64,000 bases of DNA from a virus. Location: IMG/VR virus record IMGVR_UViG_3300009702_000021, positions 19,008-83,007 of that record, one strand, 5' to 3'. Numbering within the stretch: the first letter of the stretch is position 1; every line of letters starts with the position of its first letter. The notes under the pieces are model-generated. The model saw only the letters and a program-made list of their open reading frames with translations. It searched no databases and was not told where the DNA came from. Positions 12,200-40,099 of this stretch are shown piece after piece. The position numbers and the translations under genes were made by a program.

Positions 12200-12808
12200 A
12201 TGGCACTGACGTTGGAGCACGCTGACTTCGACTCGCCAGTTGAGGGCGGACGGGCTGGCCTACTGGCATGGTGGGTCAAGGACGAGGAGCGCAAGCAGCC
12301 ATTCCTCTGCATCCGCTGGGCCGACCTCCTGGTGATACGCCCTAGGGTCTCCTGGCCCCGTGACCTAGACAGGAAGGCTATCGATGGCTGGGGACGGGAC
12401 AGCCAACACCTCGCCTACGTGCCATCGATGGGGATGTGGACGATACAGACCATTGTTCCGGTTCCGGCGCTCGGAGACCTCATGAGTTTGCGGCGCCGCA
12501 AGTACCAGCGAGCCAAGCTAGGGCGCCGGGTCTTCAGGTGGTCGAAGCGACTCAGGTTCCGTGAGCTGGACCTCTGCAACCCTGGGCTGGGCTGTAGCCT
12601 CTGGATCCCCAAGAGGTCCCTGAGGCGTCTCGAGGCAGCCCTGGAGGGCGCGGTAGGGCCCCTGAAGGGAGACCTCGACGCCAGGATAGTCCAGCCGCCC
12701 TGGGACGAAGGCACGGACCTCCTGGTTGTCTGGAAGGGAGGAGATGTCAGGGCCTCGGCGTCAATTGTCCCGACCGGAGTCCTCGAGCGCAGCATGGCGG
12801 ACAGGTGA
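12200..12808 (+). CDS. Hypothetical protein
   Basis: First ORF after an AT-richer intergenic region; coupled to the SNF2 gene. Confidence 0.5.
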   Translation: MALTLEHADFDSPVEGGRAGLLAWWVKDEERKQPFLCIRWADLLVIRPRVSWPRDLDRKAIDGWGRDSQHLAYVPSMGMWTIQTIVPVPALGDLMSLRRRKYQRAKLGRRVFRWSKRLRFRELDLCNPGLGCSLWIPKRSLRRLEAALEGAVGPLKGDLDARIVQPPWDEGTDLLVVWKGGDVRASASIVPTGVLERSMADR

Positions 12809-15543
12809 TCAAGGTCACGGTCTCGCCTGCCGGCACGGTCATCTTGGAGCCTACTTCCCAGGCCGACAAGAAGACCGTAAAGGACCTGCTATACGTCGTT
12901 CGCCGGAAAGGTAAATGGGTCACGTTCTGGACCTACCTCGTAGACCTCCGTCGTGACGTACCGGCGGGACTGCTCCAGTGGCACCCAGCGGCAACAGCCA
13001 GGATCCGAGCCTTGCTCCGTCAGGTCCGGGATCTAATCCGGGGAGACGATGAGAGGATTGCCGGGCAATTCAAGCCAGACCGGAGGCCCTACGACTTCCA
13101 GATGCAGGCGATCCACGCTGGCCTGAAGGCCAAGCAGATACTTATCGCTGACGATACGGGCCTCGGGAAATTATCCCCAGTCGACACCCCCGTCCTGACT
13201 CCTCTGGGCTGGCGGGAGATCGGGTCAATCCGCAAGGGAGACAGGGTCATTGGATCGGACGGGAAGCCTACAGAGGTGACGGGAGTGTTCCCACAGGGGG
13301 TCAAGCCAAGTTACCGGGTAACGTTCTCTGACGGGTCCAGCGCAGAGGCCGGACCAGAGCACCTCTGGGCGGTTGATTACTGGAGGGGAGGTCGTACCAA
13401 GTCTCGCATCGTTATAACTACTGATGATCTACGACTGCGTCCAATCAAGGATGGACTCGACCTCTCCAAGACCAGGCTCATGGTCCCCATGCTCTCTGGT
13501 CCGGTCGAGTTCGATAAGGGCCATCCCTTGCCTATCCCTCCATATGCAATGGGTGCGTTGATCGCTAATGGGGGGCTGACTTGTGGATCGGCTGTGCTTA
13601 CCTACGGGACCAAAGACTGGGACGAGATTAGGAACCTGATCTATGAGGGATACGGCTACGAACCTATGGGGAAGATTCAGAGGTCAGCCAACACAACACG
13701 AGCCAGCCTCCTCGGGGCGATAGTCGCCGTTCGCGATCTCAAACTGGATGTGAGAAGTCAGGAAAAGTACATTCCGACCTGCTACGCCACTGCATCTCCG
13801 GTTGACAGACTGAAACTCCTGCGCGGGCTCATGGATGCAGACGGGTCGATCACCAAGAAAAGGAATCGAGTCACCTACCATACGATCTCTTACGACCTAG
13901 CCCACGACGTGGCTGGGCTCGTGCAAGGACTTGGTGGGATTGGCAGTGTTCGACGCTATGACCGGACCCATGAGGGTAAGCCGGTCGAGTATCAGGTCAG
14001 GGTCAAGATGCCACATGGCATCAACCCGTTCTCACTTAGGCGAAAAGCAGACCGATATAACCCAGGACCCAAGGCTGGCCCCTGCCGAACGATCAGGACG
14101 GTCGAGTACGTTCGTGAGGCTGAGTCGGTCTGCATTTCTGTAGCTGCCAGTGACTCGCTCTACGTGGTCAAGGACCATATCTTGACTCACAACACCATCG
14201 AGTGCCTAGGAATCATGCTGACGGCCTTTCGGGAACGGTCGATCAAGCGCGCAGTCCTGGTCGTCCCAGCCGGGCTCAAGCACCAGTGGGCCGAGGAGAT
14301 CGAAGAGTTCGCGCTCGAGGCACCGGACCCGGTGATGATCGCCGTCTCGGGAAAGAACCCACGGCGCCGGAAGCAGCTATACAAGAAGCCATGGCGGGTC
14401 CTGATCATCAACCCAGAGCTAGTAAGGATCGATGAGGACAGCCTCAGGGAAGTGGCGAATGGTGTAGGCTTCGTAGCCCTCGACGAGGCATCCTGTATCC
14501 GCAACGAGGACTCGCAGATCGCTAGGGTCATGAAGCGCCTCTGGGCCTCGGCGATCTACAAGGTGGCCCTGACGGCTACTCCTGTCGAGAACCGGCTCGC
14601 GGACCTCTGGTCGATCATCCGCTGGGTAAGCCCGAAGGCGTTCCTGAGCCGGACCTACTTCGACCGCCACTACATCGTCTGGAGGAAGCTGAGGTTCAAG
14701 GTCAAGAAGCGTACGGGACGCACGGTCACGATTACCAAGGAGGAGCCCTTGCGGTACCGCAACCTCCGGGAGGTAGAGTCAAAGATCAGGCACTGCTACA
14801 TCAGGCGCCGCGTCAGCGAAGTCGGGAAGGAGCTACCCGAGCTTGTTGTCCAGTGGGACCAGCTGCTACTCCCGAAGCGTCAGCGCGCGATCTACGACGC
14901 CGTCAAGGACAAGCTCGAGAAGAAGATCAAGGGCCTACGCGGTGTCGCCCTCCACGCGCCACTCCAGGCCCTAAGGCAGGCGTGTAACAGCACCGCCCTA
15001 GTCGAGAAGGATCGCGGGCAGAAACACGCCTCAGTCAAGATCGATCGGCTCAGGGAGCTGTTGGAGACCGAGTTCACTGGCGAACAGGTGATCGTGTTCA
15101 CCGACTACGAGCGGTTCGGCCGGATCCTCAAGCACGAGCTGAGGGCCTACCGACCCGTGACCTACACCGGGAAGATGAACCGTCGGGACCGCCAGCAGGC
15201 GATCGATGCATTCAGGCTCGGTGATCGTAGGATCCTGATCGGGACCAAGGCACTCGAGCGGGGTCATAACCTCCAGAATGCCGCGATCGTGGTGAACATC
15301 GACCTCCCGTTCAACCCGGCCTCGGTCAAGCAGCGCCTCGGCCGAGTACGCCGCCTCGGCTCCAAGCACCAGACGGTCCGGCTCTGGAACATGGTAGTCA
15401 ACGACACCGTCGAGGAGCGACTGATCATGCGCTCGCTCTACGCGAAGCGGAAGCTGTTCGAAGGGATCTTCGAGTCGGACGAGCTGACCGACGCCGACCC
15501 CCTGGAGAGGATGGTCGGAGGTAAGCTGTGGGACCTCTTGTAG
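12805..15543 (+). CDS. SNF2-family helicase/ATPase containing an intein
   Basis: DDTGLGK|T Walker A, LDEA Walker B, LTATPVEN, motif VI QRLGRVRR. Confidence 0.9.
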   Translation: MIKVTVSPAGTVILEPTSQADKKTVKDLLYVVRRKGKWVTFWTYLVDLRRDVPAGLLQWHPAATARIRALLRQVRDLIRGDDERIAGQFKPDRRPYDFQMQAIHAGLKAKQILIADDTGLGKLSPVDTPVLTPLGWREIGSIRKGDRVIGSDGKPTEVTGVFPQGVKPSYRVTFSDGSSAEAGPEHLWAVDYWRGGRTKSRIVITTDDLRLRPIKDGLDLSKTRLMVPMLSGPVEFDKGHPLPIPPYAMGALIANGGLTCGSAVLTYGTKDWDEIRNLIYEGYGYEPMGKIQRSANTTRASLLGAIVAVRDLKLDVRSQEKYIPTCYATASPVDRLKLLRGLMDADGSITKKRNRVTYHTISYDLAHDVAGLVQGLGGIGSVRRYDRTHEGKPVEYQVRVKMPHGINPFSLRRKADRYNPGPKAGPCRTIRTVEYVREAESVCISVAASDSLYVVKDHILTHNTIECLGIMLTAFRERSIKRAVLVVPAGLKHQWAEEIEEFALEAPDPVMIAVSGKNPRRRKQLYKKPWRVLIINPELVRIDEDSLREVANGVGFVALDEASCIRNEDSQIARVMKRLWASAIYKVALTATPVENRLADLWSIIRWVSPKAFLSRTYFDRHYIVWRKLRFKVKKRTGRTVTITKEEPLRYRNLREVESKIRHCYIRRRVSEVGKELPELVVQWDQLLLPKRQRAIYDAVKDKLEKKIKGLRGVALHAPLQALRQACNSTALVEKDRGQKHASVKIDRLRELLETEFTGEQVIVFTDYERFGRILKHELRAYRPVTYTGKMNRRDRQQAIDAFRLGDRRILIGTKALERGHNLQNAAIVVNIDLPFNPASVKQRLGRVRRLGSKHQTVRLWNMVVNDTVEERLIMRSLYAKRKLFEGIFESDELTDADPLERMVGGKLWDLL
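13171..14193 (+). mobile_element. Class 3-type intein with in-frame LAGLIDADG endonuclease, in the SNF2 Walker A
   Basis: Begins with Leu; EHLW, VCISV, THN followed by T; GALIANGG and LRGLMDADGS motifs. Confidence 0.9.
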
Positions 15544-15996: not shown

Positions 15997-18900
15997 ATGG
16001 GAAAGAAACGCACTTGGTTCCCACACTTCCACGTCCATGACGAGCACTCGATCAAGGACGGCTGCTCGACCGTCGAGACCTACGCCGACCTGGTAGTTGA
16101 GTCAGGCGGAGACTGCCTAGCGATCACGAATCACGGGCAGGCAGCCGGGTTCGCGCGCCAGTACTTCGCCTGCCGTGACCGAAAGATCAAGCCCGTCTTC
16201 GGCATGGAGGCCTACGTCAACGAGTGGAGGACTCGCCCGATCAAGAGGCTCCAGGAGGAGCTGAAGAAGGCCGAGAAGGCTGCCAAGAAGTCGCCAGCCA
16301 GGCTCTCACAGATCAAGGCCAAGCAGGAGTCCCTCAAGCGGTTCATTGCTGAGCGGTTCCGGCCAAGCCCACATGCGATCATCCTCGCTAAGAACCGGGT
16401 CGGCTACCAGAACCTCGTTCGCATGAGCACGGACAGCTACCAGCACGGCTTCTACTATGTGCCGCGGACCGACACCAAGTTCCTCTCCGAGCACCGCGAG
16501 GGGCTGATCTACAGCACAGCCTGCATCGGTGGCTACATCCCCAGGATGGCCCGGGTAGACTTCGCCGCTGCGTGCGAGGAGGCTCGTCGGCTCAAGGCGA
16601 TCTTCGAGGACGGCGGAGGTGGCTTCTACGTCGAGCTGATGATCACCGAGTACGAAGCACAGCGTGAGACCAACGAGGTCATGATCCGGCTCGCCACCGA
16701 GATCGGCGCCAAGTGCATCCTGACCTGCGACGTCCACTACGCGAAGCCCGACGACGGGCAGGCGCAGAACGTCCTCCTGCTGATGCGGGACAAGAAGACG
16801 ATAGCCGACCGGGAGGCCGGCGAGGGAGTCTGGCAGTTCGAGGCTAAGGACCTCTGGTGGAGGACGGTCCAGGACGTGGTCCAGTGCTGGAGGGAGAACC
16901 ACTCGGACTACATGGACCGGAGCTGTTTCCAGGCTGCCCTCAAGAACACCCTTGCCCTGGCAGACGAGATCGAGGACGTCGAGTTCGATACGAGCCTCAA
17001 GCTACCTGGGGTCTTCAAGGAGCCAGATCACGACCTCAAGGAGCTGGTCAAGTCGGGCTTGCGGTACCGCAAGGAGCACGGGCAGCTAGCGCCGGGAGTC
17101 AAGCTCTCGGAGTACACCGATCGGATCAAGCGTGAACTATCGGTCATCAGCCCCAAGGGGTTCAGCGAGTACTTCCTGATCCTGCACGACGTCTGCCGGG
17201 CAGCCCGGGAGATGGGAGCCCGCATGGGCCCGGGCCGCGGTAGTGCCGGCGGATCCCTGACGGCCTACCTCTGTCGGATAACCGAGATTGATCCGCTCAG
17301 GTTCGGACTCCTGTTCGAGCGGTTCCTCGATGCCGGCCGCGATGACCCACCGGACATTGACCTCGATTTCTCCCCGGAACACCGAGACGGCATCAAGGCC
17401 TATGTCGAGAAGGCCTACCCGGCAACTGCAACGATCGGGTCCAACGCTACATTCAAGCCGCGCGCCACGCTCCAGGACGTCGGCCGGGTCTTCGGGATCG
17501 ACTACCGGGAGATGCAGCAGATAACCAAGCCCCTGGGTACCGAAGCTGATGACATGACGTGGGATGAAATCTTCGAGGCCTGGCCGGCCGTTGAGAGGTT
17601 TGCTGACGACCACCCGGAGGCGTGGAGCGTCGTCCGGGTCCTCCGGGGGCTCATCAGCCACCGCGGCAAGAATGCTGCCGGGATGCTCATCGCTCCGGCC
17701 TCAGCCCTCAACGACGTCCCGATGATCATGGAGACGGACAGCAAGGGCAACAAGATGACCGTGACAGCATTTGCGGACAGCCAGGGAGACGGAGTCGAGC
17801 ACAAGGGGCGGGAGCTGACTCGACTCGGCTACCTAAAGGCCGACCTGCTCGGTGTCCGAAACCTGAACATCGCGCCGCAAGCAGTCGAGATCGTAGCGCG
17901 GGATACTGGGCAGGAGATCGACCTAGAGTCACTCTCCCTCGACGACGAGGAGACGCTCCAGACTGCGGCAACGGGAGACGTCCCAGGGGCCTTCCAGCTC
18001 GACACCAACACGACGCGACCGATCCTCCGTCACGTCGGGGTAGATAGCTTCGCTGACCTAGTCATGATTACTGCCCTCTGCCGACCAGGTCCCCTCAAGA
18101 ATCAGATTCATCGTGAGTTCGCCAAACTCAAGCGCAGCGATGCATGGGAGGACGATGTACTGCCAGAACTAAGGGAGCTGCTCCGGGACAGCCGCGGACT
18201 CATGGTCCTCCAGGAGGACGTCATGTGGGTCGTGCAGGTAGTCAGCGGCATGTCGATGCAGGAGGCCAACATGCTCCGAAAGATCATGTCGAAGAAGCAA
18301 CCTGAGGCGATGAAGCAGTGGAAGGAGAGGTTCGTTGAGGGAGGCAAGGAGGTAGGGCTCGCCACGGAAGAGGAGCTGGTCGAGCTGTGGGACAAGATCA
18401 AGACCTTTGCCGGCTACGGGTTCAATAAATGTGTATGTTATAATCAGCCCATCACCGTGAGGCGGACTTGCGGTACCGCAAAGGAGACTGATCGTGGGCA
18501 AGAGTACACCAACGAAGTGCGCGTGTGGGGCGGTGTTCCCGAAGAAGAAGTTGTGGGTGGACCACAAGAGGACGTGCAGTCCACACAAGGAGATAGTCAA
18601 ACAGGCCCGGCTGTCCAACCTCGCCAAGGCCAATGCACCGGATGCGAGGGAGAGGGCGCGAAAGACTTTCCTGATGAGGGATTACGAGGTAACCGAGGCC
18701 CAGAGAGATGCTCGAAGGAAGAATGCCCGCAAGCACCTCACGCCGTGGGCGCAGAGCGAGGATGGCAGGAGGGTGTCTTCCGAGACAGCCAAGAAAACGT
18801 CAGCGAGGAAGGATGTCAAGCAGGCGAGGGCGAAGCGCATGAAAGAGTGGGTGCGAAACAATCCAGGAGTGATCGCTCGGACAGGTCAGCGTGCAGCGGC

Positions 18901-20637
18901 ACTGGCCATCGACGGAGCAGGGGAGCTGGAGTTAGCAGAACTTCTTCACAATCTGAATGTAGTCAGACAGGAAGTGGTAGAGGTCGTACCGGGAAAGTTC
19001 GGCCTGTTCGATCTATCTCTTCCGAGCCGAAGCGTATTGATCGAGGTGGACGGCTCAGAGCACTTCAATCAGGGTGGACGGGAGATGATCGCCGACTACG
19101 CCAAGGAGGACTGGGTCAGGAGCAAGGAAAACGAGCAGGGGTGGGGATTGATCAGGGTACAACTCACCAACGACCGCAGGCTAGTCAGGGAAGTGAAGAT
19201 CGGACTCTTGCGAGCTATCAAGAAAATCAAACCGAGGGAGGTTCTATTCGTCGGGGATTGCTACGACAAGAGGAGGAGGCCCAAGAAGAGGAAACGATCC
19301 CGATCGGCGAAGTAGCCGTCGGTGACCTCGTCCTCGCACAGGATGGAGACTGGGTCCGAGTCCTCGACGTCCATGACCACGGTCTCCAAGAGTGCGTGGA
19401 GGTAGTGCTTCCGACCGGCTCCGTGGTCTGCACCTGGGATCACCGTTTTCCTACCCCACAGGGAACCCTGACGCTGCACAAAATCATCAATACCAAAACT
19501 CGGATCCTCACAAAGCAGCGCCTCGACACCATCTCAATTGACACCTGGCAGCTTCCGACCTCTGTCACTCCAGTTGGAGTTCGTCACACCGTTGATCTCG
19601 AGGTTGACCACCCGACTCACTGCTACTTCCTCGCCAACGGAGTCTGCACCCACAACAGCCACGCTACCGCCTACATGATCACTGCCTACCGTCAGCTCTA
19701 CATGCTGACCCACCACACGGTCGAGTACTTCGCTGCCCTGCTGACTCACACGCCGCGGGGTAAGAAGACTGCCGGCGGCGGGGAGCTGGTGGTCGACTAC
19801 ATGCGAGCCGCGATGTCCCGGCGGATCACCCTGCTGGGTCCATGTGTTGTAGACGGAGCTATCGGTTTCGACGTCGATAAGTACGGTCGGATTCGCTACG
19901 GCCTCGGGCACGTCAAGGGAGTCGGAGGCGCAGCCCAACTGGTAATGGCTGCGAGTCCGTTCGAGTCCCTCGAGGATATGTTCGACCGGATCGAACGACG
20001 CCGGGTCAACTCGCGCGTGTTCAAGCAGCTGATCTTCAGCGGCGCCCTGGACAAGCTCGACTTCAACCGACACGCCGGCAAGGGTGACCCGATCCCGGAG
20101 TGGATCGGAGTCGAGCGCAGAAATGGGATCCTAGCCCGCTATGAGCAGCTGAGGAAGGCGAAGGAGACACCAGATGTATTCTCGACATCGGTCCTCCGGG
20201 AGAAGGAACGTGAGGTGCTAGGACTCCCGCTGTCCTGGTGGTCCTCCGACACGGTCCAGGAACTGCGCGACCAGGAGGGGCTGGAGACGATCGACTATCA
20301 CCTCCGCAGTGACCTCAGCAAGCTAGAGATCATCGCCGAGGTCAGCAGAGCTAGGACGCACCGGACCAAGAAGGGGACGACGATGGCGTTCCTGACGCTG
20401 GCGGACGAGACCGGGACCCTGCCGAACGTCACGATCTGGCCCGAGCAGTGGTCAACATACAGGCGGATGCTCTCCCAGGGTCGGATGGCGATCATCCGCC
20501 TCCGGCGCAAGGAGAATCACAACCGCGAGTTCGGTGAGTGGTCCTACTACCTCGAGGACAAGTGGAGCGAGCCCGTCGAGAGCGTGGCCCGCGCACTACG
20601 GCGTGATACCGAAGGCGTGGAATCGGATGACGAATAG
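15997..20637 (+). CDS. dnaE: DNA polymerase III alpha subunit containing an intein
   Basis: PHP domain (HFHVH..SIKDG), GRGSAGGSL, PDIDLDF, GFNK|SHATAY, C-terminal OB fold. Confidence 0.95.
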   Translation: MGKKRTWFPHFHVHDEHSIKDGCSTVETYADLVVESGGDCLAITNHGQAAGFARQYFACRDRKIKPVFGMEAYVNEWRTRPIKRLQEELKKAEKAAKKSPARLSQIKAKQESLKRFIAERFRPSPHAIILAKNRVGYQNLVRMSTDSYQHGFYYVPRTDTKFLSEHREGLIYSTACIGGYIPRMARVDFAAACEEARRLKAIFEDGGGGFYVELMITEYEAQRETNEVMIRLATEIGAKCILTCDVHYAKPDDGQAQNVLLLMRDKKTIADREAGEGVWQFEAKDLWWRTVQDVVQCWRENHSDYMDRSCFQAALKNTLALADEIEDVEFDTSLKLPGVFKEPDHDLKELVKSGLRYRKEHGQLAPGVKLSEYTDRIKRELSVISPKGFSEYFLILHDVCRAAREMGARMGPGRGSAGGSLTAYLCRITEIDPLRFGLLFERFLDAGRDDPPDIDLDFSPEHRDGIKAYVEKAYPATATIGSNATFKPRATLQDVGRVFGIDYREMQQITKPLGTEADDMTWDEIFEAWPAVERFADDHPEAWSVVRVLRGLISHRGKNAAGMLIAPASALNDVPMIMETDSKGNKMTVTAFADSQGDGVEHKGRELTRLGYLKADLLGVRNLNIAPQAVEIVARDTGQEIDLESLSLDDEETLQTAATGDVPGAFQLDTNTTRPILRHVGVDSFADLVMITALCRPGPLKNQIHREFAKLKRSDAWEDDVLPELRELLRDSRGLMVLQEDVMWVVQVVSGMSMQEANMLRKIMSKKQPEAMKQWKERFVEGGKEVGLATEEELVELWDKIKTFAGYGFNKCVCYNQPITVRRTCGTAKETDRGQEYTNEVRVWGGVPEEEVVGGPQEDVQSTQGDSQTGPAVQPRQGQCTGCEGEGAKDFPDEGLRGNRGPERCSKEECPQAPHAVGAERGWQEGVFRDSQENVSEEGCQAGEGEAHERVGAKQSRSDRSDRSACSGTGHRRSRGAGVSRTSSQSECSQTGSGRGRTGKVRPVRSISSEPKRIDRGGRLRALQSGWTGDDRRLRQGGLGQEQGKRAGVGIDQGTTHQRPQASQGSEDRTLASYQENQTEGGSIRRGLLRQEEEAQEEETIPIGEVAVGDLVLAQDGDWVRVLDVHDHGLQECVEVVLPTGSVVCTWDHRFPTPQGTLTLHKIINTKTRILTKQRLDTISIDTWQLPTSVTPVGVRHTVDLEVDHPTHCYFLANGVCTHNSHATAYMITAYRQLYMLTHHTVEYFAALLTHTPRGKKTAGGGELVVDYMRAAMSRRITLLGPCVVDGAIGFDVDKYGRIRYGLGHVKGVGGAAQLVMAASPFESLEDMFDRIERRRVNSRVFKQLIFSGALDKLDFNRHAGKGDPIPEWIGVERRNGILARYEQLRKAKETPDVFSTSVLREKEREVLGLPLSWWSSDTVQELRDQEGLETIDYHLRSDLSKLEIIAEVSRARTHRTKKGTTMAFLTLADETGTLPNVTIWPEQWSTYRRMLSQGRMAIIRLRRKENHNREFGEWSYYLEDKWSEPVESVARALRRDTEGVESDDE
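18436..18444 (+). promoter_or_regulatory. Extended -10 promoter (TGnTATAAT) inside the DnaE intein
   Basis: TGTTATAAT, consensus extended -10 in a GC-rich genome, about 50 nt before the nested ORF start. Confidence 0.6.
18494..19315 (+). CDS. Nested +1-frame Vsr/DUF559-like homing endonuclease with N-terminal zinc finger
   Basis: AAGGAG RBS at 18481; CxC..HxxxC; FDL...LIEVDGSEH...D..K..W...GW..IRV. Confidence 0.8.
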   Translation: MGKSTPTKCACGAVFPKKKLWVDHKRTCSPHKEIVKQARLSNLAKANAPDARERARKTFLMRDYEVTEAQRDARRKNARKHLTPWAQSEDGRRVSSETAKKTSARKDVKQARAKRMKEWVRNNPGVIARTGQRAAALAIDGAGELELAELLHNLNVVRQEVVEVVPGKFGLFDLSLPSRSVLIEVDGSEHFNQGGREMIADYAKEDWVRSKENEQGWGLIRVQLTNDRRLVREVKIGLLRAIKKIKPREVLFVGDCYDKRRRPKKRKRSRSAK

Positions 20638-21543: not shown

Positions 21544-21869
21544 GCAAGCCGATGTTTCAGAAAAGGGATCTCGACCTCATCCGAGCCGCGACCTGGGGCT
21601 GCTGGGACGCGGTGAAGACCAAAGACCACCTCGGGGACGCGGCTAGGAAGCGAGGTCTCGTAGCCAGGACCGCGACCGGTGATGCCCACGAGACAGCCTT
21701 CAAGTGGGCCCGGCAGGAGCAGAGGGCCCACGATCTGCTTGCGGTACCGCAACCCATCAACGGGACCCTGCGGGATTACATCGCCTGCACCTGCTCCTAC
21801 GACGAGAGTGAGGAGATGACGCGCCATGCTCCGCTATGCTCGATCACCAAGGCGGGGATCAACTGGTGA
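21540..21869 (+). CDS. Hypothetical protein
   Basis: TTG start after GGAGGAGG; overlaps the dnaB start. Confidence 0.45.
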   Translation: MSKPMFQKRDLDLIRAATWGCWDAVKTKDHLGDAARKRGLVARTATGDAHETAFKWARQEQRAHDLLAVPQPINGTLRDYIACTCSYDESEEMTRHAPLCSITKAGINW

Positions 21870-24295
21870 GCGACTACGAACACATCATCACCGCCGGGAT
21901 CCTCCAGCGCCCGTCCCGCATTTCAGACGTCTCGTCGATCAAGCACGAGTACTTCTCAGACAAGGAGGCCCGAGCCCTCTTTGCGATGGTCCAGACCTAC
22001 CACGAGAAGTGCGGCCGGCGGAACGCGATGGACATCGCCCTCGCCCGGTCGCGTCTCGAGGACAGCAAGAGTAAGCTCGCGCCACACCTGCTCTACCTCG
22101 TCGACGAGTACACGGAGCTGGACCCGGTCACCGACTCCGAATTCAGGGACGCGATCGAGAAGCTGGTCACCTCGCGCCGGGAGGGGCTGCTGCGTGAGCA
22201 TGGCGCCGCTGCCCTGGAAGCCATGGTCGAGGGAGAGTACTCCGAGGCGACCGCCCGGATGCGCGAGGCCCTTCTGGCGGCCGACGACACGGACCTCGAG
22301 GACGACCGACCCGTCGACATCCGCAGCTCCGTCGAGATCGACCGGGAGCGCCGGAGGACCGAGCGGCCACCCGAGGACGGGACGCTGGGGTTCGACATCG
22401 GGTTCCCTCGGCTGATGCGCGCCACCCGGTTCCGCCGCAAGGAGCTGACGATCCTGGGAGGCTACGCCTCAGATGGCAAAGCACTGAGCCATGGGACCCC
22501 GGTCTTGACCCCGAGCGGTTGGAGGGATGTCGAGGACGTCCGGGTCGGGGAGCTGGTAACCGGCCGGGACGGGAGTCCCACCCGGGTCGTCGGCGTGTTC
22601 CCCCAAGGACGACGAGACCTGCTCAGGGTCACCTTTGCTGACGGGTGCTGGGTGGACGTGGACCAGGACCACCTCTGGGCGGTCCAGGATGTCAATGACG
22701 CCAGGAGACCTGGGTTGGTGACGAGGACCAAGACGACAAGAGAGTTGGTCCCGGACCTGCGCCTCAAGAATGGCTCCGCCAAGTGGCGGGTTCCGCTCTG
22801 CGGCTCGGTGGAATTCGAGCCCGGTCCGCCGCTCCTGATCGACCCCTACCTGCTCGGGGTCCTCTTGGGTGACGGGTGCCTGAGTCAGACTTCCGTCACC
22901 TTCTGCACCGGTGACGAGGACGTCCCGTGCGAGGTAGAGAAGGTGCTGCCTCGGGGCGTGGTCATGCGCAAAAACGGGACCGACGAAGCCTCAGGCAGGG
23001 CCGTGCGCTACAGCCTCGTGACAGAGGGGAGGAGACAGAACCCCGCCAGAGATGCCCTCGAGGCCCTCGAGGTGATGGGCAAGAGGGCCTGGGAGAAGAC
23101 GGTTCCCGAGGTCTATCTCTTCGCCAGCCCCGAGGATCGACTCTCTCTCCTGCAGGGGCTCGTCGATACCGACTCAGACGTGGCCTCGAGAGGGAAGCCC
23201 AGTTTCGTGTTCACCTCTTCGTCCGAGAACCTGACCCGCTCAGTGGCCTTCCTGGTGCGCTCACTTGGTGGTGTCGCCCGGGAGCGAAGCCGAATTCCCA
23301 CCTACTGCCACCTCGGCGAGAAGAAGCAAGGTAGGAGGTCCTACGAAGTGTGCGCGAACCTCCCGGTTCACCTGATCCCGACTAGGGCCCACCGCACCAA
23401 GTGGCCGACGAGGCTGAGCAGGAACCTCGTCAGGAAGATCACGGCCATTGAGCCCGTCGGGGAGGCGGAGGCGACCTGTCTAGCGGTTGAGGCCGAGGAC
23501 CACCTATTCATCGTCAAGGACTTCGTAGTCACACACAACACTCAGTTCAGCAAGTCACTGGCCTACAACGTCAACCGAGCGGGTGCGACCGTGATCTTCG
23601 TTGCGCTTGAGATGACCCGTGAAGAGATACGCACGATGTTCGTAGCCCAACATGCGGCATCCCTAGATCCCCGCGGGGTGCCGTGGGTCGACGCCCTGGA
23701 CGGGATCCTGAACGCCGGCCAACGGAAGCTGTGGCACCGGGCCCTCGACGACTGGCAGATCGACTCGCACGAGGACACGGACGAGATGACCAGCGAGTCC
23801 GGCTCTCTGATCATCTGGGCGCCGACCCGGCGGATCACACAGGCAGACTGGAAGGCCAGGTTGCGGGCGTCGAAGCAGGAACACGGGATCGACGTCGCCT
23901 TCAAGGACTACACCGAGCTGGTCAAGCCCTAGGAGATCAAGCGATTCAAAAACTACCGGCTCGACCTCAAGGAGATGATCGAGGAAGACAAGGCACTCGC
24001 GCGGGAGCTAGACATCTGGCTCGTTGACAATCACCAGATCAGCCGGAAGGGACGCGACGAGGCTGAGAAGAGGAACCCACCGCACTACCTGATGCGCGAC
24101 CTCGGTGAGTCCTCCGGCCTCGAGCGCGCGGCTGACTCTGTGCTCTGGATCTACAGCGACATGGACCTCCGGGATGACCGCGGGGCCATTGCCGGGGTAG
24201 CCAAGGCCCGGAAGGGCAAGCCGATCATCCACGGCGTCCGGCTCTACGCCGACTTCGAGAAGGCCGTGGTCGCGCCGCGGGCCGACTACGACTAG
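21866..24295 (+). CDS. dnaB: Replicative DnaB-like helicase with an intein and an in-frame TAG at 23930-23932
   Basis: GGYASDGK|T, VALEM, KDY; same frame continues after the TAG with HQISR and DLGESSGLERAAD motifs. Confidence 0.85.
22481..23539 (+). mobile_element. Class 3-type intein with LAGLIDADG endonuclease, in the DnaB Walker A
   Basis: Begins with Ala; DHLW, TCLAV, THN followed by T; LLGVLLGDG and LQGLVDTD motifs. Confidence 0.9.
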
Positions 24296-30152: not shown

Positions 30153-30313
30153 CGCTCCCGACTCGTGCGTATCTAGAGGCGGCAGGGGAGCCCCAGCACG
30201 AGGCCGGAACCCAAGCTTGGAGACCAAGACCTAGGAGACAGATTCAGGTCCGTGGTGGGCCGGAGAATGAATGACAGAGGGATGTGCTGGCCGACCCCAG
30301 CGTGGAGACACCC

Positions 30314-33300
30314 ATGAGCAAGAGCAGGTTGACCCCGGTCCTGAAGGGCCTCAACCCCATAGAGAAGTCGAGAGTTGAGACCTGGGTGCCCACGGACCGG
30401 GAGGGCCTGGTCGTTCGGGTCAGGGATCCCGGACCCGGTGAGGGGATCCCGGTCACCCTGATCGAGGACCTGACTGAGGTAGAGGTCCACGACGAGACAT
30501 CCGGTGCGTGGATCCGGGGCCGCGCCGCAGCACAGACTACCCCTGGCTGGCCCGTCACGCTGATCAAGGCCGTCGAGAGGATCCGCGCCGAGGCCGAGCG
30601 AGCCATGGTCTGCCCGGAGTGCGACAGCTACCTGATCCTCCGGGACCGGGACCTAGAGTGCGCGGAGTGCGGACTGTGCATGAACCCCGACTGCCCGAAC
30701 TGCGGAGGCCGGACGGCCTTGCGGTACCGCAAGCTCAAGGGCCAGCCAGCCGACATCCCTCCGGCATTCTGGGCGTGCCGGGATGATGCCTGCGCCTCTG
30801 CGCTCCTGTGGGGCCAGCGAGACCCTCAACCACAGCAGGTCCCGGATAAGCCGTGGACGGAGCACGGGGAGAGGGAGGAGCAGATCGCGGAGGCGCGTGA
30901 GGTCCTAGATCACCCGCTGGTCTCGGAAGCCAATGCGGTCAAGAAGCTGCGAGTGATCCTCGACGAGAACCCCGACCGGGTCCTGCCACTGGTCCTCGGG
31001 GAGACCACGCCCTCAGGCAAGAAGACGGTCCAAGCCAGGCTCGAGGAAAAGCTGGCTGAGGAGCGCCGGCAGGGCAAGCCACGACGCCGGGTCAAGAGGC
31101 GTGCCCAGAAGGCACGCCGGGTCCAGCCCGGGGAGAAGCGTGAGGGTATCAAGTACTACGGCCCCGAGGACTCATTGCCTGGTCCGTCCGGGACGTCCCT
31201 GGTCGAGGTCCCTGAGGACGATGAGACCTCCGTGGCGTCGTCTGTCTACCCACACCACCGGCTAGCTCATGCAGCGCTGAACCCGATCCAGTCGCGCGTC
31301 CTCGATGTCTATGACCGGAACTGCAACGTGGTGATCGCCGCCAGCACCAGTGCTGGTAAGACCCTCAGCGCTGAGATGGTCATGGGTGACGCCCTCGACC
31401 GCGGCGCCAAAGCGATCTTCCTCGCGCCGCTCCGGGCCGTCAGCCAGGAGAAGTACGACGACTGGTGCGATGAGGACCACCCGTGGTCAGAACTAGGGGT
31501 CGAAATCTGCACGGGTGACTACACGATGAGCCAGGCGAAGCGGAAGGCCCTGCGCCGCGCCGACGTGATCGTGATGACATCTGAGATGCTCGACTCCAAG
31601 ACGCGTCGGATGGGGAGCGACGAGAACGGCTGGCTGATGGAGACACTCTGCGTGGTCGGCTCCTCCGGGATTGCACTTGCGGACGGGACTACGAAGACAA
31701 TCAAGGAGATCGTGGAGGAGCGTCTCGAGATTGAGGTCTTAGCTTTCAATCACTCGATTGGGAAAGTCGTCAAGCGCAGGGTGACGGGATGGCACAAGAA
31801 CCGGTTAGGAGACAGGAATCTCGTTGAGATCACTTGCGGTACCGCAAGTCTGACCTGCACCGAAGATCATGAGATATACCAGCGAGGCGTGGGGTATACT
31901 GCTGCCAGGAAGCTCACATCTTCGAGCACGCTGGAGGTGCTGGATGCCGGTCAAGAAGGGACACAGATTCGGCGCGAAGCGCACGGTCGAGCTGACGGAC
32001 ATAGAGCGATCGGTTGTCATAGGGACACTGCTCGGAGACAGCTCACTATCGTGGGGAACAGGGAACCGGGTAAGTGCCAGAATGCGTGTGAGGAACAGCC
32101 TCGCACAGCGGGAGTTCGTGTTGTGGAAGTACGAGATGCTTCGGCGTCTTGTGCGGACTCCTCCGAAGGAGGCGCCGAATCGTGGATACAAGCGCGACGG
32201 AATGGCATTCGGATTTTCCACGAGGTCCTTCGGAGAGGACCTACTCAAGATCAAACAATTGATCGAACCCGGGAAGACGGTGACGCGCGATCTGCTGGAC
32301 TTGTTGACGGAGCCAGAGGGACTGGCCGCGTGGTACATGGACGACGGATCGAGGTCGAGGGGGGCGAGTCTCGTACTACATACACAGTCAATGACTGCCG
32401 ACGAGGTGCGGTTGACGTCGCGTTGGCTCAGGGAGGAGTGGAATATCGAGACCAGGCCGATGTCGGTCAAGAACAGAGCCTACGAGGTGCTACGTATTCC
32501 GGCGGAATCAGGCGAGCGGTTTATGGATATCGTGAGACCATTCGTGACCGGGATAACATGCATGGAGCACAAGGTATTGCACAGGAGAGAGTCGCTGTTC
32601 TGCACGATGTGCGGCACAGGGTTCGAGGCAACGAGGCGTCAGATCCAGCGCGAGACGAGACTTGTCACCTGCCGGTCCGAGGACTGCATGAGGGCCCTAG
32701 CCCGTATGATTCAGAGACTGAACGACGCGAGGATCGGTTCGTCTACGACCTAACCGTCGAGGGTGAGCACAACTACTTCGCCGAGGGAGTCCTGGTCCAC
32801 AACTGCGTGGTCGTTGACGAGGCTCACCTGCTAACGATGAAGGACCGCGGCGACGCCTTGGAGTGCGGACTCGAGCGATTCACTCGGTTCAACCCCCACG
32901 CTAGGATCGTCCTCCTCAGCGCGACCATGCCGAACGTCCATGAGCTAGGGTCCTGGCTGACCCGCCTGAACGGGAAGCCGACCCGCCTTGTCCAGAGCGC
33001 GTGGCGTCCCACCAAGCTGACCGTTCACCCCGTGCCGTACGACCACCAGACGTCGGGTTACAGCTACCACAAGAACGAGGACTCCAAGCGGGCTAAGGCG
33101 ATCGAGCTGCTCCAGAAGTACAGCGAGGACAAGTGGATCGTCTTCGTCCACACGAAGAAGATGGGCCACGCCCTGCTGGCCCAGCTACGGGACCGGCACG
33201 AGCCAGCCGAATTCCATAGCGCTGACCTCACCCGAGACAACAGGCTCCGGCTCGAGGACCGGTTCAGGCACGGAGACCTCAGGGTCGTCGTAGCCACTTC

Positions 33301-34384
33301 GACCCTGGCCTACGGCATCAACATGCCGGCGCGACGGGTCATGGTCGTCGGAATCCACCGCGGCCTGGAGAAGGTCGCACCGCTAGACGTACTCCAGATG
33401 TTCGGGCGGGCCGGGCGAGTGGGCCTCGACCCTGAAGGCGATGCCTACCTACTGGTCCCGGAGACCCGTGATCCACGCGAGTTCGACCGGACCGTCGAGG
33501 CCTACTCGAAGCCAGGTCTGATCGAGAGCCAGCTGAACGAACTGCACACGCTGGCCTTCCACTTGACGGCGGAGGTAGCCGAGGGGTCAGTGAGGACGAC
33601 CGCGGATGCAGTTGCCTGGCACGCCCGTTCGCTCGCGGCACAGCAGGGCCGGGGTCTTGACCAGGAAGGGAAGGTGCTCAGCGCCTCCCGGGTAATGCAT
33701 GACCTCTGCCAGTGCGGCGTCCTCAAGGAGGAGGACGGGAGCTATGAGGCGACACAGCTCGGTCACGTCGCGAGCCGACTCTACTACAGTCCGTTCGACG
33801 TAGCTGACTGGGCGTCCAACTTCCGCTGGGCCGCGGAGCGGGATAAGCACCACAACGATGACGTGGTCGCGTGGGCGCTCGGGAACGTCCGGTCGGCCTA
33901 TTCCAAGAGCTACTTGCCGAAGGAACACGCTGGTGACATGGGAGACCTCGAGTGGCGCCTAGGACAGGTCGGAGTGGACCGGGCCTCCAACCTCCCGCCC
34001 GCTTGCCTGGCTTTCCGTGGGATGATCGAGGGGACCAAGTACAGGGCGATGTCGTCCTATCAGCGCCAGCTAGAGTACGACGCCGACAGGATCATGCAGG
34101 CGATCACCATGATCGACGCTCGGGTGCTCAAGTCGCTCGGGAAGACCTACTGTGACGGCCTGGGTATGCGACTTCGCTACGGGTGCTCCTGGGAGGAGGC
34201 CGACCTGTGTCACATCCCCGGGGTAGGCTCCCGCCGCGCACGGCAACTGGCTGCCGCGGGAGTCAGTGGGGTAATGGACGTCCTGGAGAATCGCAAGAAG
34301 GTGGTCGACGCACTCGGGAGCAAGATCGCGCAGAGCGTGATCCGCGGGGCTAAGGAGGTTGCCAGGAAGCGTGGAGCGCGTTGA
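30314..34384 (+). CDS. Ski2/Hel308-like DEAD/H helicase with N-terminal Zn ribbons and an intein
   Basis: STSAGKT, APLRA, DEAH, LSAT, ATSTLAYGINMPA, QMFGRAGR, C-terminal HhH (IPGVG). Confidence 0.9.
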   Translation: MSKSRLTPVLKGLNPIEKSRVETWVPTDREGLVVRVRDPGPGEGIPVTLIEDLTEVEVHDETSGAWIRGRAAAQTTPGWPVTLIKAVERIRAEAERAMVCPECDSYLILRDRDLECAECGLCMNPDCPNCGGRTALRYRKLKGQPADIPPAFWACRDDACASALLWGQRDPQPQQVPDKPWTEHGEREEQIAEAREVLDHPLVSEANAVKKLRVILDENPDRVLPLVLGETTPSGKKTVQARLEEKLAEERRQGKPRRRVKRRAQKARRVQPGEKREGIKYYGPEDSLPGPSGTSLVEVPEDDETSVASSVYPHHRLAHAALNPIQSRVLDVYDRNCNVVIAASTSAGKTLSAEMVMGDALDRGAKAIFLAPLRAVSQEKYDDWCDEDHPWSELGVEICTGDYTMSQAKRKALRRADVIVMTSEMLDSKTRRMGSDENGWLMETLCVVGSSGIALADGTTKTIKEIVEERLEIEVLAFNHSIGKVVKRRVTGWHKNRLGDRNLVEITCGTASLTCTEDHEIYQRGVGYTAARKLTSSSTLEVLDAGQEGTQIRREAHGRADGHRAIGCHRDTARRQLTIVGNREPGKCQNACEEQPRTAGVRVVEVRDASASCADSSEGGAESWIQARRNGIRIFHEVLRRGPTQDQTIDRTREDGDARSAGLVDGARGTGRVVHGRRIEVEGGESRTTYTVNDCRRGAVDVALAQGGVEYRDQADVGQEQSLRGATYSGGIRRAVYGYRETIRDRDNMHGAQGIAQERVAVLHDVRHRVRGNEASDPARDETCHLPVRGLHEGPSPYDSETERREDRFVYDLTVEGEHNYFAEGVLVHNCVVVDEAHLLTMKDRGDALECGLERFTRFNPHARIVLLSATMPNVHELGSWLTRLNGKPTRLVQSAWRPTKLTVHPVPYDHQTSGYSYHKNEDSKRAKAIELLQKYSEDKWIVFVHTKKMGHALLAQLRDRHEPAEFHSADLTRDNRLRLEDRFRHGDLRVVVATSTLAYGINMPARRVMVVGIHRGLEKVAPLDVLQMFGRAGRVGLDPEGDAYLLVPETRDPREFDRTVEAYSKPGLIESQLNELHTLAFHLTAEVAEGSVRTTADAVAWHARSLAAQQGRGLDQEGKVLSASRVMHDLCQCGVLKEEDGSYEATQLGHVASRLYYSPFDVADWASNFRWAAERDKHHNDDVVAWALGNVRSAYSKSYLPKEHAGDMGDLEWRLGQVGVDRASNLPPACLAFRGMIEGTKYRAMSSYQRQLEYDADRIMQAITMIDARVLKSLGKTYCDGLGMRLRYGCSWEEADLCHIPGVGSRRARQLAAAGVSGVMDVLENRKKVVDALGSKIAQSVIRGAKEVARKRGAR
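31649..32803 (+). mobile_element. Intein in the Ski2-like helicase (Cys1...His-Asn, +1 Cys) with a nested out-of-frame endonuclease gene
   Basis: CVVGSSGI.LADG, CTEDH, VYDLTVEGEHNYFAEGVLVHN; inserted just before Walker B. Confidence 0.9.
31944..32753 (+). CDS. Nested +1-frame LAGLIDADG homing endonuclease
   Basis: GGAGG RBS at 31933; VIGTLLGDSS and LAAWYMDDGS motifs; C-terminal CxxC..CxxxxC. Confidence 0.85.
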   Translation: MPVKKGHRFGAKRTVELTDIERSVVIGTLLGDSSLSWGTGNRVSARMRVRNSLAQREFVLWKYEMLRRLVRTPPKEAPNRGYKRDGMAFGFSTRSFGEDLLKIKQLIEPGKTVTRDLLDLLTEPEGLAAWYMDDGSRSRGASLVLHTQSMTADEVRLTSRWLREEWNIETRPMSVKNRAYEVLRIPAESGERFMDIVRPFVTGITCMEHKVLHRRESLFCTMCGTGFEATRRQIQRETRLVTCRSEDCMRALARMIQRLNDARIGSSTT

Positions 34385-35155: not shown

Positions 35156-35735
35156 CCTGCTCACGGTCGAGACTACGGTTAGGAATCTGGCCTATCAGAT
35201 GCGCCGAAACATCCCACTGCTCCGTGACCTCGACAACGAGGACCTGGTCCAGGAGTGCTACGTGAAGGCCCTCACGAGCCTAGACCACTATGACCCTAGG
35301 CTCTCATCGCTCAAGACGTGGACCGTAGGGATCGCTAGGAATCACCTGGTGAGCGTGGCCCGCAGGATTGGATCACGGCCCCAGGTAAACCGGGAGGACA
35401 TTGAGATAGTCTCCGGCGTGCCTGGCTCAGCGGATCCGTCCTATGAGCCAGATATTGGTCGCAGGGTCGTGCTACGTTCCCAGACCAAGGAGATGCTCGG
35501 GTGGCTCTCGCAGTGTCCCGACGGGATCGACCAGGGGTGGGCGGTCCTGAACCTCCTACTCAAGACGAACGCTAACTGGAGCTACACCGCCAACGCCCTC
35601 TGCATCCACACCGGGCAGGCATGGACCACTGAACGCGTGCGCAATGTGGTGCGCGCGATCAAGAAGACTCCTCGCGGACAAGCGCTGTGCGACTCCCTGG
35701 GAATCCGTATCGACAACGACAACGAAGGAGACTGA
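35034..35735 (+). CDS. RNA polymerase sigma factor (ECF-like); start uncertain
   Basis: Region-2 motif EDLVQE.YVKA...YDP...LKTW..GIARN. Confidence 0.7.
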   Translation: MMMGQSTRRASFGEPGVVLARARTTTRSRAGRPSDGTSPGDLLTVETTVRNLAYQMRRNIPLLRDLDNEDLVQECYVKALTSLDHYDPRLSSLKTWTVGIARNHLVSVARRIGSRPQVNREDIEIVSGVPGSADPSYEPDIGRRVVLRSQTKEMLGWLSQCPDGIDQGWAVLNLLLKTNANWSYTANALCIHTGQAWTTERVRNVVRAIKKTPRGQALCDSLGIRIDNDNEGD

Positions 35736-35736
35736 A

Positions 35737-39442: not shown

Positions 39443-40099
39443 GTGGCAGGACGAGTCAGGAAGCGTAAGCAGCAGAAACTATATGTCGGAGTCGACCCGG
39501 GAAAAGAGGGGTTTATCTGCGCCGTTGACCACCGCTGTCACATCAGAGTCATGTGGTCGATTCCCTACGCCGGGAAGCAGATCGATGAGGTCCTGTTGGC
39601 GAAGATGATCATCGCGCTGGTCAAGTCCGGGGCCCAGGTGTTCTTCTTGGAGCACCAGCAGCCGCACGCGAAGGAAGGCGCGGTCGGGGCCCACAGCGGT
39701 GGGACTGCCTACGGCGCCCTGAGGATGGCCTGTGCCATGGCCGGGATCCTGGGCAAGGTGCCCTACGAGATCCTCCGGCCGGAGGACTGGAAGCGCAGGG
39801 CGAAGATCCCGGTGCCATCCGTCCCGAAGGCTAAGCTGCCGCCGGAGCCGGAGAAGACTAAGAAGGCCGACCACCGACGCTGGAAGAAGGAGGTTGAGAA
39901 GATCAAGGCCAAGCGGAGCCGGGAGGTTAAGAAAAGGCGGAAGGCCCACAGTATCGCGATGGCCGAGCGCCTCCAGCCGCACTATGACTTCTACAAGACC
40001 GCGAGGTCGAAGGGACCACACGACGGCAAGTGCGAATCGTTCTTGCTGGCGAGAGAGGCCTGGAAGCAGGCCCGAGGGATTAGAGACGATGCCACCTAA
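39443..40099 (+). CDS. ruvC: RuvC-like Holliday junction resolvase
   Basis: VGVDPGK.G, FLE, P..WK, HDG..ES.LLA. Confidence 0.75.
   Translation: MAGRVRKRKQQKLYVGVDPGKEGFICAVDHRCHIRVMWSIPYAGKQIDEVLLAKMIIALVKSGAQVFFLEHQQPHAKEGAVGAHSGGTAYGALRMACAMAGILGKVPYEILRPEDWKRRAKIPVPSVPKAKLPPEPEKTKKADHRRWKKEVEKIKAKRSREVKKRRKAHSIAMAERLQPHYDFYKTARSKGPHDGKCESFLLAREAWKQARGIRDDAT

Follow-up and report, generated by a model that had tools for sequence, protein, structure and literature searches.

Nuclease genes that overlap an intein in another reading frame have already been described, and the intein treated here is to be compared with them. It interrupts dnaE in IMG/VR virus record IMGVR_UViG_3300009702_000021 and appears to carry a homing-endonuclease gene nested in its +1 frame. 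The stretch analyzed, called the window below, comprises 64,000 nucleotides (nt) of this 83-kb record, which comes from a subsurface metagenome and has an estimated completeness of 45%. Its G+C content is ~62%, and nearly all genes of the window lie on one strand.

Described Systems

Antisense LAGLIDADG genes in contiguous inteins were reportedly described by Gorbalenya in 1998, a work cited in both preprints discussed below. One close parallel is found in the inteins of actinobacteriophages whose endonuclease lies in another frame or on the other strand (Gosselin et al. 2025, bioRxiv 10.1101/2025.01.02.630785). According to the available text of that preprint, these inteins are contiguous, as in the window, with a host-frame filler that holds no domain and a complete overlapping nuclease gene; DNA polymerase III (Pol III) alpha is among their hosts. 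Their proposed origin is a mini-intein invaded by a free-standing nuclease gene. The original prediction for the present locus, which a model made from the sequence alone, had pointed to such inteins as a possible precedent, and rightly so. The same-strand case presented by Gosselin et al. is endonuclease VII-like and in “frame 3”, while their VSR-like and LAGLIDADG genes are antisense; the window has a Vsr-like gene on the same strand in +1. It further differs in the insertion after about residue 12 and in a clear Shine-Dalgarno (SD) sequence. The available text of the preprint contains neither “ribosom” nor “promoter”.

A cyanobacterial dnaX intein with an out-of-frame LAGLIDADG gene provides another example (Phillips, DeSimone, Gogarten, bioRxiv 10.64898/2026.09.14.751524). 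As far as that preprint is available, the likeness consists of a same-strand overlapping open reading frame (ORF), an intein in a replisome gene and SD motifs upstream, and secondary invasion of a mini-intein is proposed there too. The nuclease frame of the dnaX intein is reported to be under purifying selection. The differences are the host gene, dnaX, the LAGLIDADG family, the +2 phase of the ORF and the cellular host; the available portions describe no unusual insertion point.

Fractured genes are a third kind of arrangement, in which a free-standing Vsr-like or GIY-YIG nuclease gene lies between the halves of a split intein (Dassa et al. 2009, PMC2677866). The portions of that paper at hand describe nucleases whose Vsr-like core has an additional invariant glutamate and whose N-terminal part binds DNA, with DnaE among the hosts and control elements just upstream of the nuclease start, all of which resemble the window. 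In both cases the nuclease gene runs past the point where the intein sequence resumes, sharing ~6 codons with it in the window and 6-69 bp in the fractured genes. The host frame of the window is stop-free and the gene is not fractured, whereas 13 of its 20 viral DnaE relatives, described below, are exactly of this split type. The window's family is equated with the Vsr-like family of Dassa et al. by matching descriptions and context, not by sequence comparison.

Interruption close to the N-terminus of an intein is known from split inteins. Engineered S1 split inteins are divided between beta2 and beta3, leaving an N-fragment of 10-12 amino acids (aa), and 4 of 14 S1 constructs trans-spliced, including a DnaX intein, according to the part of the report consulted (Lin et al. 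2013, PMC3620165). Inteins with an atypical split and a short N-fragment also occur naturally, among them AceL-TerL (25 aa) and GOS-TerL (37 aa), as listed in the available part of a review (PMC11766414). By these accounts, S1-type inteins consist of two polypeptides that splice in trans, whereas the intein of the window is a single polypeptide with a 277-aa loop. Likewise, the natural atypical split inteins have N-fragments of 25-37 aa and occur in terminase genes, compared with ~12 residues and DnaE in the window.

A related arrangement outside inteins is the ShiLan domain, a hidden out-of-frame HNH nuclease in a phage methylase (Arsenault et al. 2025, PMC11855218). Here too a nuclease gene with a GTG start is overprinted on a stop-free insertion of the host frame. 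From the accessible text, ShiLan differs in belonging to the HNH family, in having no intein and in having no detectable ribosome-binding site (RBS), for which leaderless initiation is proposed.

In a literature search that covered neither subscription journals nor supplements (the Gosselin tables included), no contiguous DnaE intein was found with a Vsr-like nuclease on the same strand in +1, and no intein with a nuclease gene at its S1 loop. Out-of-frame intein nucleases are already known; what the window adds is the insertion point and unusually explicit start signals.

The DnaE Intein and Its Nested Gene

The ORF at 15997-20637 on the + strand encodes a protein of 1546 aa, which its Pfam matches (PHP, DNA_pol3_alpha, finger, HHH_6 and OB) identify as DnaE, or Pol III alpha. 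The parts of this gene and of the element within it are listed here; GC3 stands for the G+C content at third codon positions.

15997-18429, +: DnaE N-extein, ending ...AGYGFNK (Pfam PHP, DNA_pol3_alpha, finger); its last residue corresponds to Taq alpha 815 and E. coli alpha 758
18430-19656, +: intein of 409 aa, from Cys1 to Thr-His-Asn, then Ser+1 (translation; exact insertion; C part resembling solved mini-inteins)
18430-18465, +: N-terminal splicing segment, about residues 1-12, CVCYNQPITVRR, assumed to give beta1-beta2 (alignment with 7 related inteins)
18436-18444, +: extended -10-like element TGTTATAAT in intein codons 3-5, the sole TGNTATAAT of the window, with no -35 partner
18466-19296, +: host-frame spacer of 277 aa that spans the nuclease gene and the signals ahead of it, hydrophilic and without a domain (Pfam, PHROG, composition, stop counts)
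18468-18481, no strand: perfect 14-bp palindrome TTGCGGTACCGCAA, a copy of a genome-wide motif (motif counts in the window)
18481-18486, +: SD sequence AAGGAG, 7 nt 5' of a GTG (read directly)
18494-19315, +: putative gene, nested in +1, of a homing endonuclease of 273 aa that combines a C2HC-type Zn finger with a SETAKKTSAR-type motif and a Vsr-like/DUF559 core (GC3, 26 relatives, invariant residues of catalytic type)
19297-19656, +: remaining splicing domain, IPIGEVAVGD ..., with block B T-W-D-H at 19432-19443 and blocks F/G VDLEVDHPTHCYFLANGVCTHN at 19591-19656 (phmmer against PDB)
19657-20637, +: DnaE C-extein, starting SHATAY (HHH_6 and OB); its first residue corresponds to E. coli alpha 759 and Taq alpha 816

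The original prediction had placed the intein at 18430-19656 and the +1 ORF at 18494-19315, with TGTTATAAT, the palindrome and AAGGAG ahead of the latter, and every one of these features was found in its place.

The borders of the intein are well defined. In alignments with solved Pol III alpha chains, the last of the 100 residues 5' of 18430 pairs with Taq residue 815 or E. coli residue 758 (...YGFNK), and the 100 residues 3' of 19656 start at Taq residue 816 or E. coli residue 759 (SH...). Since these flanks align to consecutive residues of Pol III alpha, 18430-19656 is an exact insertion of 409 aa. Its first codon is TGT (Cys) at 18430 and its last are CAC AAC (His-Asn) at 19651-19656, after which follows AGC (Ser). 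All intein hallmarks are thus present: Cys1, a block B TxxH (T-W-D-H, which the alignment with 7cfv places in the region of block B), THN and Ser+1.

The last 120 residues of the intein match solved mini-inteins of the PDB in a phmmer search, namely Spl DnaX 7cfv (3.8e-9), DnaB 6rix (7.8e-6) and gp41-1 6qaz (4.1e-5). These solved inteins align to the C part of the window's intein only from their residues 17-20 onward. The whole DnaE-intein protein matched no Pfam intein family. On these sequence marks, the insertion is classed as a class 1 mini-intein within the conserved GYGFNK/SH motif of a phage DnaE. A complete HINT fold, in which residues 1-12 supply beta1-beta2, is predicted.

There is no split (fractured) layout at this locus: a single ORF covers 15997-20637, and no start codon is found where the intein resumes. 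With a host frame free of stops and an unfractured gene, the intein would have to splice in cis.

Two Open Frames

The +1 ORF extends from a GTG start at 18494 to a TAG stop at 19313-19315. Within the insert, the G+C content of the three codon positions of the +1 frame is 0.56/0.44/0.71, which is coding-like when set beside the 0.63/0.40/0.82 of the exteins. The intein frame of the insert shows the coding signature of the genome displaced by one position.

The intein frame nevertheless stays open over the nuclease region, as originally noted. Not a single stop occurs in it across the +1 ORF, compared with 8.4 expected from synonymous permutation, 10.3 from genome codon usage and 10.6 from codon-order shuffling. 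An open intein frame was obtained in 0 of 20000 synonymous permutations, in 1 of 20000 resamplings of genome codon usage and in 0 of 20000 codon-order shuffles. The third frame across the same ORF contains 15 stops. When the same offset frame was read in 10 long genes of the window, it held 0.035 stops per codon, and its longest open run was 153 codons. Both frames of the insert are held open by selection.

The spacer peptide that the intein frame encodes has little likeness to a folded protein. Only 11.6% of its residues are I, L, V, F, M or W (28.5% in the exteins), 47% are G, S, T, Q, N or P, and no Pfam or PHROG match lies within it. It is poor in hydrophobic residues because its second codon base is the first base of the nuclease codon, which is T in just 12% of codons.

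The genetic code makes the +1 phase a cheap one. A stop in the host frame requires T at the third position of a nuclease codon, and a change from NNT to NNC is always synonymous. By the logic of the code, every host-frame stop should therefore be removable without altering the nuclease. This fits the codons observed: among the 274 of the +1 ORF, 100 start with AA, AG or GA and 29 end in T, yet none of the 29 T-ending codons precedes one of the former. The silent T-to-C option may be the reason why the window and all 30 contiguous relatives use +1.

The Nuclease Family

An exhaustive HMMER search retrieved 26 relatives of the nuclease at E<=1e-3, the best at 1.4e-17 with 34% identity. In the resulting alignment of 27 sequences, 13 columns are invariant (A99, T102, R112, E144, D173, E184, D186, G187, H190, F191, R221, G254 and Y257), and the window nuclease keeps all of them. 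The Vsr-type core, Asp ... Glu-x-Asp-Gly-x-x-His-Phe ... Asp, is present, and D205 is nearly invariant across the 27 sequences. The family alignment also shows an N-terminal C..C...H...C finger, where that region is present, and the SETAKKTSAR-type motif.

Pfam matches among the 27 family members are to DUF559 in 10 (best 4e-6), to the ROS/MucR zinc finger in 5 and to Vsr in 1. Thus, the assignment to a Zn finger plus a Vsr-like/DUF559 nuclease, which the original prediction had made from this one sequence, appears to hold at the level of the family. The window nuclease itself has weak PHROG matches, to PHROG 559 “HNH endonuclease” (2.9e-5) and to phrog_9084 “homing endonuclease” (1e-3). When the family profile was compared with the PDB, the best match was 3hrl (DUF559) with a non-significant E of 0.18. 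A link to I-Bth0305I (EDxHD family) was also considered; the family profile matched no such chain at E<=10, and the link is not claimed.

In a quick tree, the window nuclease falls outside the other 49 DnaE-intein nucleases (SH-aLRT 94), and the nucleases of split loci form one clade. The window nuclease has a long branch and an unsure place in this quick tree, which permits no more than the tentative statement that it is an outlier. Searches for closer kin gave no near-identical DNA and no tblastn match of the nuclease in the phage collection, and a word-indexed protein search was empty. Single-protein scans of viral contigs were likewise empty for the nuclease, for the C part of the intein with its extein and for the best homologue, P0003.

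Contiguous and Split Relatives

Loci of the relatives were fetched by family alignments, yielding 38 viral loci, 23 metagenome loci and 11 loci from species-representative genomes. A DnaE N-extein upstream of the nuclease, with intein pieces around it, is found in 20 of the 38 viral loci. Seven of these are contiguous (L003, L004, L005, L007, L014, L015 and L017; G+C 0.34-0.53), with a DnaE frame of 1318-1942 codons and the nuclease in +1. The other 13 are split: the DnaE frame closes ~100 codons past the start of the intein, the nuclease has a gene of its own, and behind this gene the C-intein and C-extein begin anew. All 23 metagenome loci have a DnaE-intein context, and the host frame is open across the nuclease in 12 of them; two loci are the same contigs as viral loci.

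The 11 genome loci (L063-L073) all come from gammaproteobacterial metagenome-assembled genomes (MAGs), labeled Beggiatoa, Thiomargarita, Thiothrix, Methylococcaceae, Methyloprofundus, Ca. Thiosymbion, Competibacteraceae and others. Each has a contiguous dnaE of 1532-1629 codons with the nuclease in +1. Unless the MAG contigs are binned phage DNA, the +1-nested layout is not confined to phages.

Contiguous loci total 30, or 27 clusters at 95% nucleotide identity. They share the DnaE insertion site with the window, and in all of them the nuclease is in +1, never in frame 0 or +2. The seven viral ones have no host-frame stops where 11.7-20.7 would be expected, and 0 of 5000 permutations were open in each. 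As a control, both alternative nuclease frames were examined in the 13 split loci and are closed, which implies that the open frame goes with contiguity. Contiguous +1-nested and split forms occur in the same DnaE intein allele family.

Selection on the two frames can be compared in pairs of relatives. Counted by position in the nuclease codon, substitutions number 88/63/149 between L060 and L061 and 8/5/15 between L046 and L048, with the third position highest in both pairs. Synonymous and nonsynonymous changes between L060 and L061 stand at 88:113 in the nuclease frame and at 16:186 in the host frame. From the third-position excess and these ratios it follows that the nuclease is the constrained protein, while the host-frame peptide just needs to have no stops.

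Two further loci, L040:148-936 and L066:4001-4798, have a broken nuclease frame across which the DnaE frame is still open. They look like decaying nucleases inside inteins that are still needed, a pattern that follows from the homing cycle, which predicts decay of the nuclease while the polymerase must survive.

The remaining 18 viral loci (L019, L021-L035, L037 and L039) are without DnaE and were excluded from all intein-context counts. They carry a standalone gene of ~265 aa that resembles the C-terminal part of the nuclease only and forms a separate clade. It lies in a conserved row of genes of ~230, 260, 155, 265 (the gene itself), 245 and 110 aa, with no DnaE nearby.

The splice junctions of the related inteins (L003-L017 and L044-L073) have Thr or Ser as first residue and end in Ser-Asn (TSN/CSN); those of the window's intein are Cys and His-Asn.

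The Insertion Point

The order of intein parts in the window is unusual. It reads CVCYNQPITVRR, the nuclease overlap, IPIGEVAVGD...HDHG...CTWDHRF, a short linker and VDLEVDHPTHCYFLANGVCTHN, followed by SH. In the relatives, the intein start (T/S-x-x-x-D-T...) is followed by the N-lobe with HDHG and block B (TLDHKF), then by the nuclease overlap, and only then by blocks F/G (YDLEV..HNF....TSN/SH). A tblastn search placed the N-lobe upstream of the nuclease and F/G downstream in every relative with both parts detected. The nuclease in the window instead precedes the N-lobe and block B, and the usual endonuclease site between blocks B and F holds just ~24 residues. The statement in the original prediction that the insert sits right after the first intein strand, not at the B-F site, is thus borne out, with an insertion after about residue 12 and a different order in the relatives.

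Judged by alignment, an insert after about intein residue 12 corresponds to the beta2-beta3 loop, the site of the engineered S1 split inteins. The long branch of the nuclease fits, without proving, an independent and old landing of a distant member of the family. A nuclease gene whose own -1 frame contains no stop could insert in phase into any intein loop that tolerates it and leave the host gene intact. One may thus picture a frame-tolerant cassette that landed independently in the S1 loop rather than at the canonical site. This intein would then be the first natural contiguous one to be interrupted there, and a direct precursor of split inteins like AceL-TerL. We put this forward tentatively, as a scenario on the unlikely side.

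Start Signals and the Palindrome

The signals in front of the nuclease gene are compact. The palindrome ends 12 nt before the GTG and overlaps the SD sequence by one base. The spacing AAGGAG-7 nt-GTG supports independent translation of the nuclease, as far as sequence signals can tell, and internal initiation on the dnaE mRNA is the simplest reading. SD-like motifs with an ATG directly before the Zn finger are also present in most of the 7 relatives checked.

For transcription, the candidate signal is the -10-like element. One TGNTATAAT is found in the 64 kb of the window, at TGTTATAAT, with 0.07 expected; such a motif occurs in 7 of 100 shuffles. A high A+T content is a general trait of the first intein codons (GC3 0.52). 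A sigma-70 scan found neither a -35 partner for TGTTATAAT nor any sigma-70-type promoter between 15500 and 21500. The genome shows no excess of TATAAT (2 found, 1.67 expected). Transcription may start inside the intein at TGTTATAAT, although on balance we lean against it.

The palindrome belongs to a set. The window contains 30 matches at <=3 mismatches where 1.6 are expected, and 25 copies at <=1 mismatch. The copies (2223-62974) lie ~2.6 kb apart, in intergenic and coding DNA, across all modules and in differing frames. Ten of the 25 have an SD sequence and a start codon (ORF >=50 aa) within 50 nt downstream, compared with 10.3% of random positions (binomial p ~1e-4). The other 15 have none downstream, and many of these are inside genes. 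The layout of palindrome, SD and start is also seen at the bona fide gene starts 37664, 38552 and 48573. Given the enrichment upstream of SD and start, the start of the nuclease looks like a normal gene start of this phage.

The palindrome at 42680 lies in the loop of a larger inverted repeat, and there is a tandem duplication at 48556/48573. A role of the palindrome as an RNA hairpin was considered and rejected. The fold of 18450-18520 has a z of -0.12 relative to shuffles, and the minimum free energy structure does not use the palindrome hairpin.

Proposed Mechanism

The reading preferred here is that the element is a dual-coding mobile unit, composed of a mini-intein in DnaE and a homing-endonuclease gene nested in its +1 frame. 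We put its probability at roughly 0.8.

The process would start with a nuclease gene of the free-standing type, from a family known from fractured split-intein genes, coming to lie in the loop after about 12 intein residues. The +1 gene would be translated separately from AAGGAG-7 nt-GTG; these signals are visible in the sequence, and expression is presumed from them. Ribosomes translating DnaE would read the same DNA in frame 0 and make the 277-aa hydrophilic spacer, on which the sole constraint, in statistical terms, is the avoidance of stops. With the spacer looped out, the 12 residues at the N-terminus and the 120 at the C-terminus could assemble into the HINT fold, and cis-splicing would then give back an uninterrupted polymerase. 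The free nuclease would cut the intein-less dnaE of co-infecting relatives at or near FNK/SH, and repair would copy the intein together with the nuclease gene (homing).

Several points weigh against this reading. The window nuclease reaches no Pfam cut-off, the best match being PvuRts1I-like_N at 0.0053, and its branch in the quick tree is very long, at 2.77 changes per column, with a best identity of 27%. Its activity is accordingly to be regarded as less certain than that of the relatives, judging from sequence. With 12 residues, the N-terminal segment offers too little sequence to establish homology to beta1-beta2. Tolerance of the loop is not general either, as 10 of 14 engineered S1 splits failed to splice in the part of the study consulted (PMC3620165). 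No RNA run among the public runs holds the stretch, which is evidence neither way on expression. Finally, no close relative of this intein was found, so that the comparison of nonsynonymous and synonymous rates (dN/dS) in both frames, proposed in the original prediction, was possible only in relatives such as L060/L061.

Alternative Explanations

The original prediction saw in the element a self-contained cassette of promoter, operator and RBS, in which transcription starts at the internal extended -10, a palindrome-binding protein gates it, and the nuclease is decoupled from dnaE. The RBS part of this layout is good and the gene looks separately startable. The element TGTTATAAT also lies 50 nt before the start, in codons that are AT-rich for a genome with a GC3 of 0.82, and the palindrome is arranged as at the three gene starts named above. 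In the available part of their paper, Dassa et al. (2009, PMC2677866) describe hairpins and 10 late-promoter elements upstream of free-standing nucleases in fractured genes. The promoter part fares less well, with no -35 and no TATAAT enrichment, so that consensus sigma-70 promoters are seemingly not the rule of this genome. The operator part suffers from a palindrome that is not specific to this gene, with 15 of 25 copies away from gene starts and an unremarkable RNA fold. For the protein at 35644-37110, a candidate ParB-like reader, Pfam gave no ParB match at E<=0.01; the sole hit was DUF7343, below cut-off. Gating by a palindrome-binding protein is not supported in the form proposed. Control of the nuclease gene by the palindrome is doubtful, and the complete cassette is unlikely. 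The palindrome at 18468 may instead be unrelated to the nuclease, being one node of a genome-wide and roughly regular set of binding sites, put into the intein because the spacer is its least constrained DNA. The spread of the 25 copies through all modules, many of them intragenic, and the presence of one in 3 of the 5 inteins of the window speak for this. Another copy at 17059, just 1.4 kb upstream, means that the spacing demands none here, however, and the one-base overlap of palindrome and SD resembles real starts. We consider that this explanation has nearly, though not quite, even odds.

Other explanations concern the +1 ORF itself. It could be a relic, in which the nuclease is dead, the polymerase frame alone is selected and the +1 ORF is open by inertia. 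The divergence of the window nuclease would suit such a fate, and L040 and L066 demonstrate that nuclease frames do decay in this family. A dead gene sits poorly, however, with 273 open codons of GC3 0.71, with 13 of 13 invariant columns kept and with an intact SD and start, and we hold a relic to be improbable. An artefact of assembly or sequencing, in which two compensating indels mask a nuclease domain that is really in frame, is the default suspicion for any single metagenomic contig; nothing was found in its favor. Frame 0 would be expected to contain 8-10 stops and has none, and since indels would not yield a stop-free second frame, the openness of that frame argues against them. Moreover, the 30 contiguous loci share the +1 phase. 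The one public run containing this stretch, probably the source sample, yielded a Logan contig (depth 15) that matches 17900-20200 with neither a difference nor a gap; this contig was probably built from the same reads and thus tests the assembler, not the reads. Compensating indels, the circumstance that the original prediction had named as its own refutation, are therefore disfavored to the point of being hardly credible. Lastly, +1 ribosomal frameshifting could fuse the nuclease to the N-terminal part of DnaE and the intein start. SD-like sequences within coding regions can stimulate frameshifting in known cases. Frame 0 has neither a slow nor a stop codon at the junction, though, and a start codon stands at the ideal distance from the SD, an arrangement echoed by the ATG starts of most relatives checked. 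Frameshifting is thus very improbable.

Other Inteins in the Window

By Pfam, the 64 kb contain five inteins, in an SNF2 helicase, in DnaE, in the protein at 21836-23932, in a Ski2-like helicase and in a RecA-like protein. Three of these are as follows.

12805-15543: SNF2 helicase with a LAGLIDADG_3 intein (Pfam)
21836-23932: 698-aa protein with Hint and LAGLIDADG_3 (Pfam)
39732-42332: RecA-like protein with a LAGLIDADG_3/Hom_end intein (Pfam)

The intein of the Ski2-like helicase (30284-34384) is a second dual-coding one. It lies at 31649-32803 and matches Pfam Intein_splicing at 7e-11. Its +1 frame encodes a LAGLIDADG_2 protein (3.2e-27), running from an ATG at 31944 to a stop at ~32753 behind GGAGGT-5 nt-ATG. 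The host frame has no stops where 6.8 are expected, and 0 of 10000 permutations were open. The nuclease in this intein is at the usual site after block B.

The three inteins that hold a palindrome (18468, 31834 and 40702) have it at the 5' edge of the nuclease-coding part. The copy at 31834 is ~97 nt before the LAGLIDADG start of the Ski2-like intein, and that at 40702, in the RecA-like intein, precedes the initial LAGLIDADG motif of a domain encoded in frame by ~12 codons. These positions could reflect sites placed in unconstrained DNA or an association with nuclease modules.

Significance

Annotation pipelines will either overlook this nuclease gene or label its intein “decaying”.

The nucleases of inteins reportedly share a single, highly conserved site. 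The window departs from it and thereby offers a concrete route to naturally atypical split inteins, which are valued as protein-labeling tools. If the nuclease gene is indeed a cassette that landed in the S1 loop, a single nonsense change in the spacer would give an N-fragment of 12-21 aa. Should the internal -10 and the palindrome be functional too, this cassette would bring along its own timing control.

The occurrence of contiguous and split forms of the same intein allele, together with a reason for the +1 phase that lies in the genetic code, helps to explain how nucleases and inteins merge or break genes.

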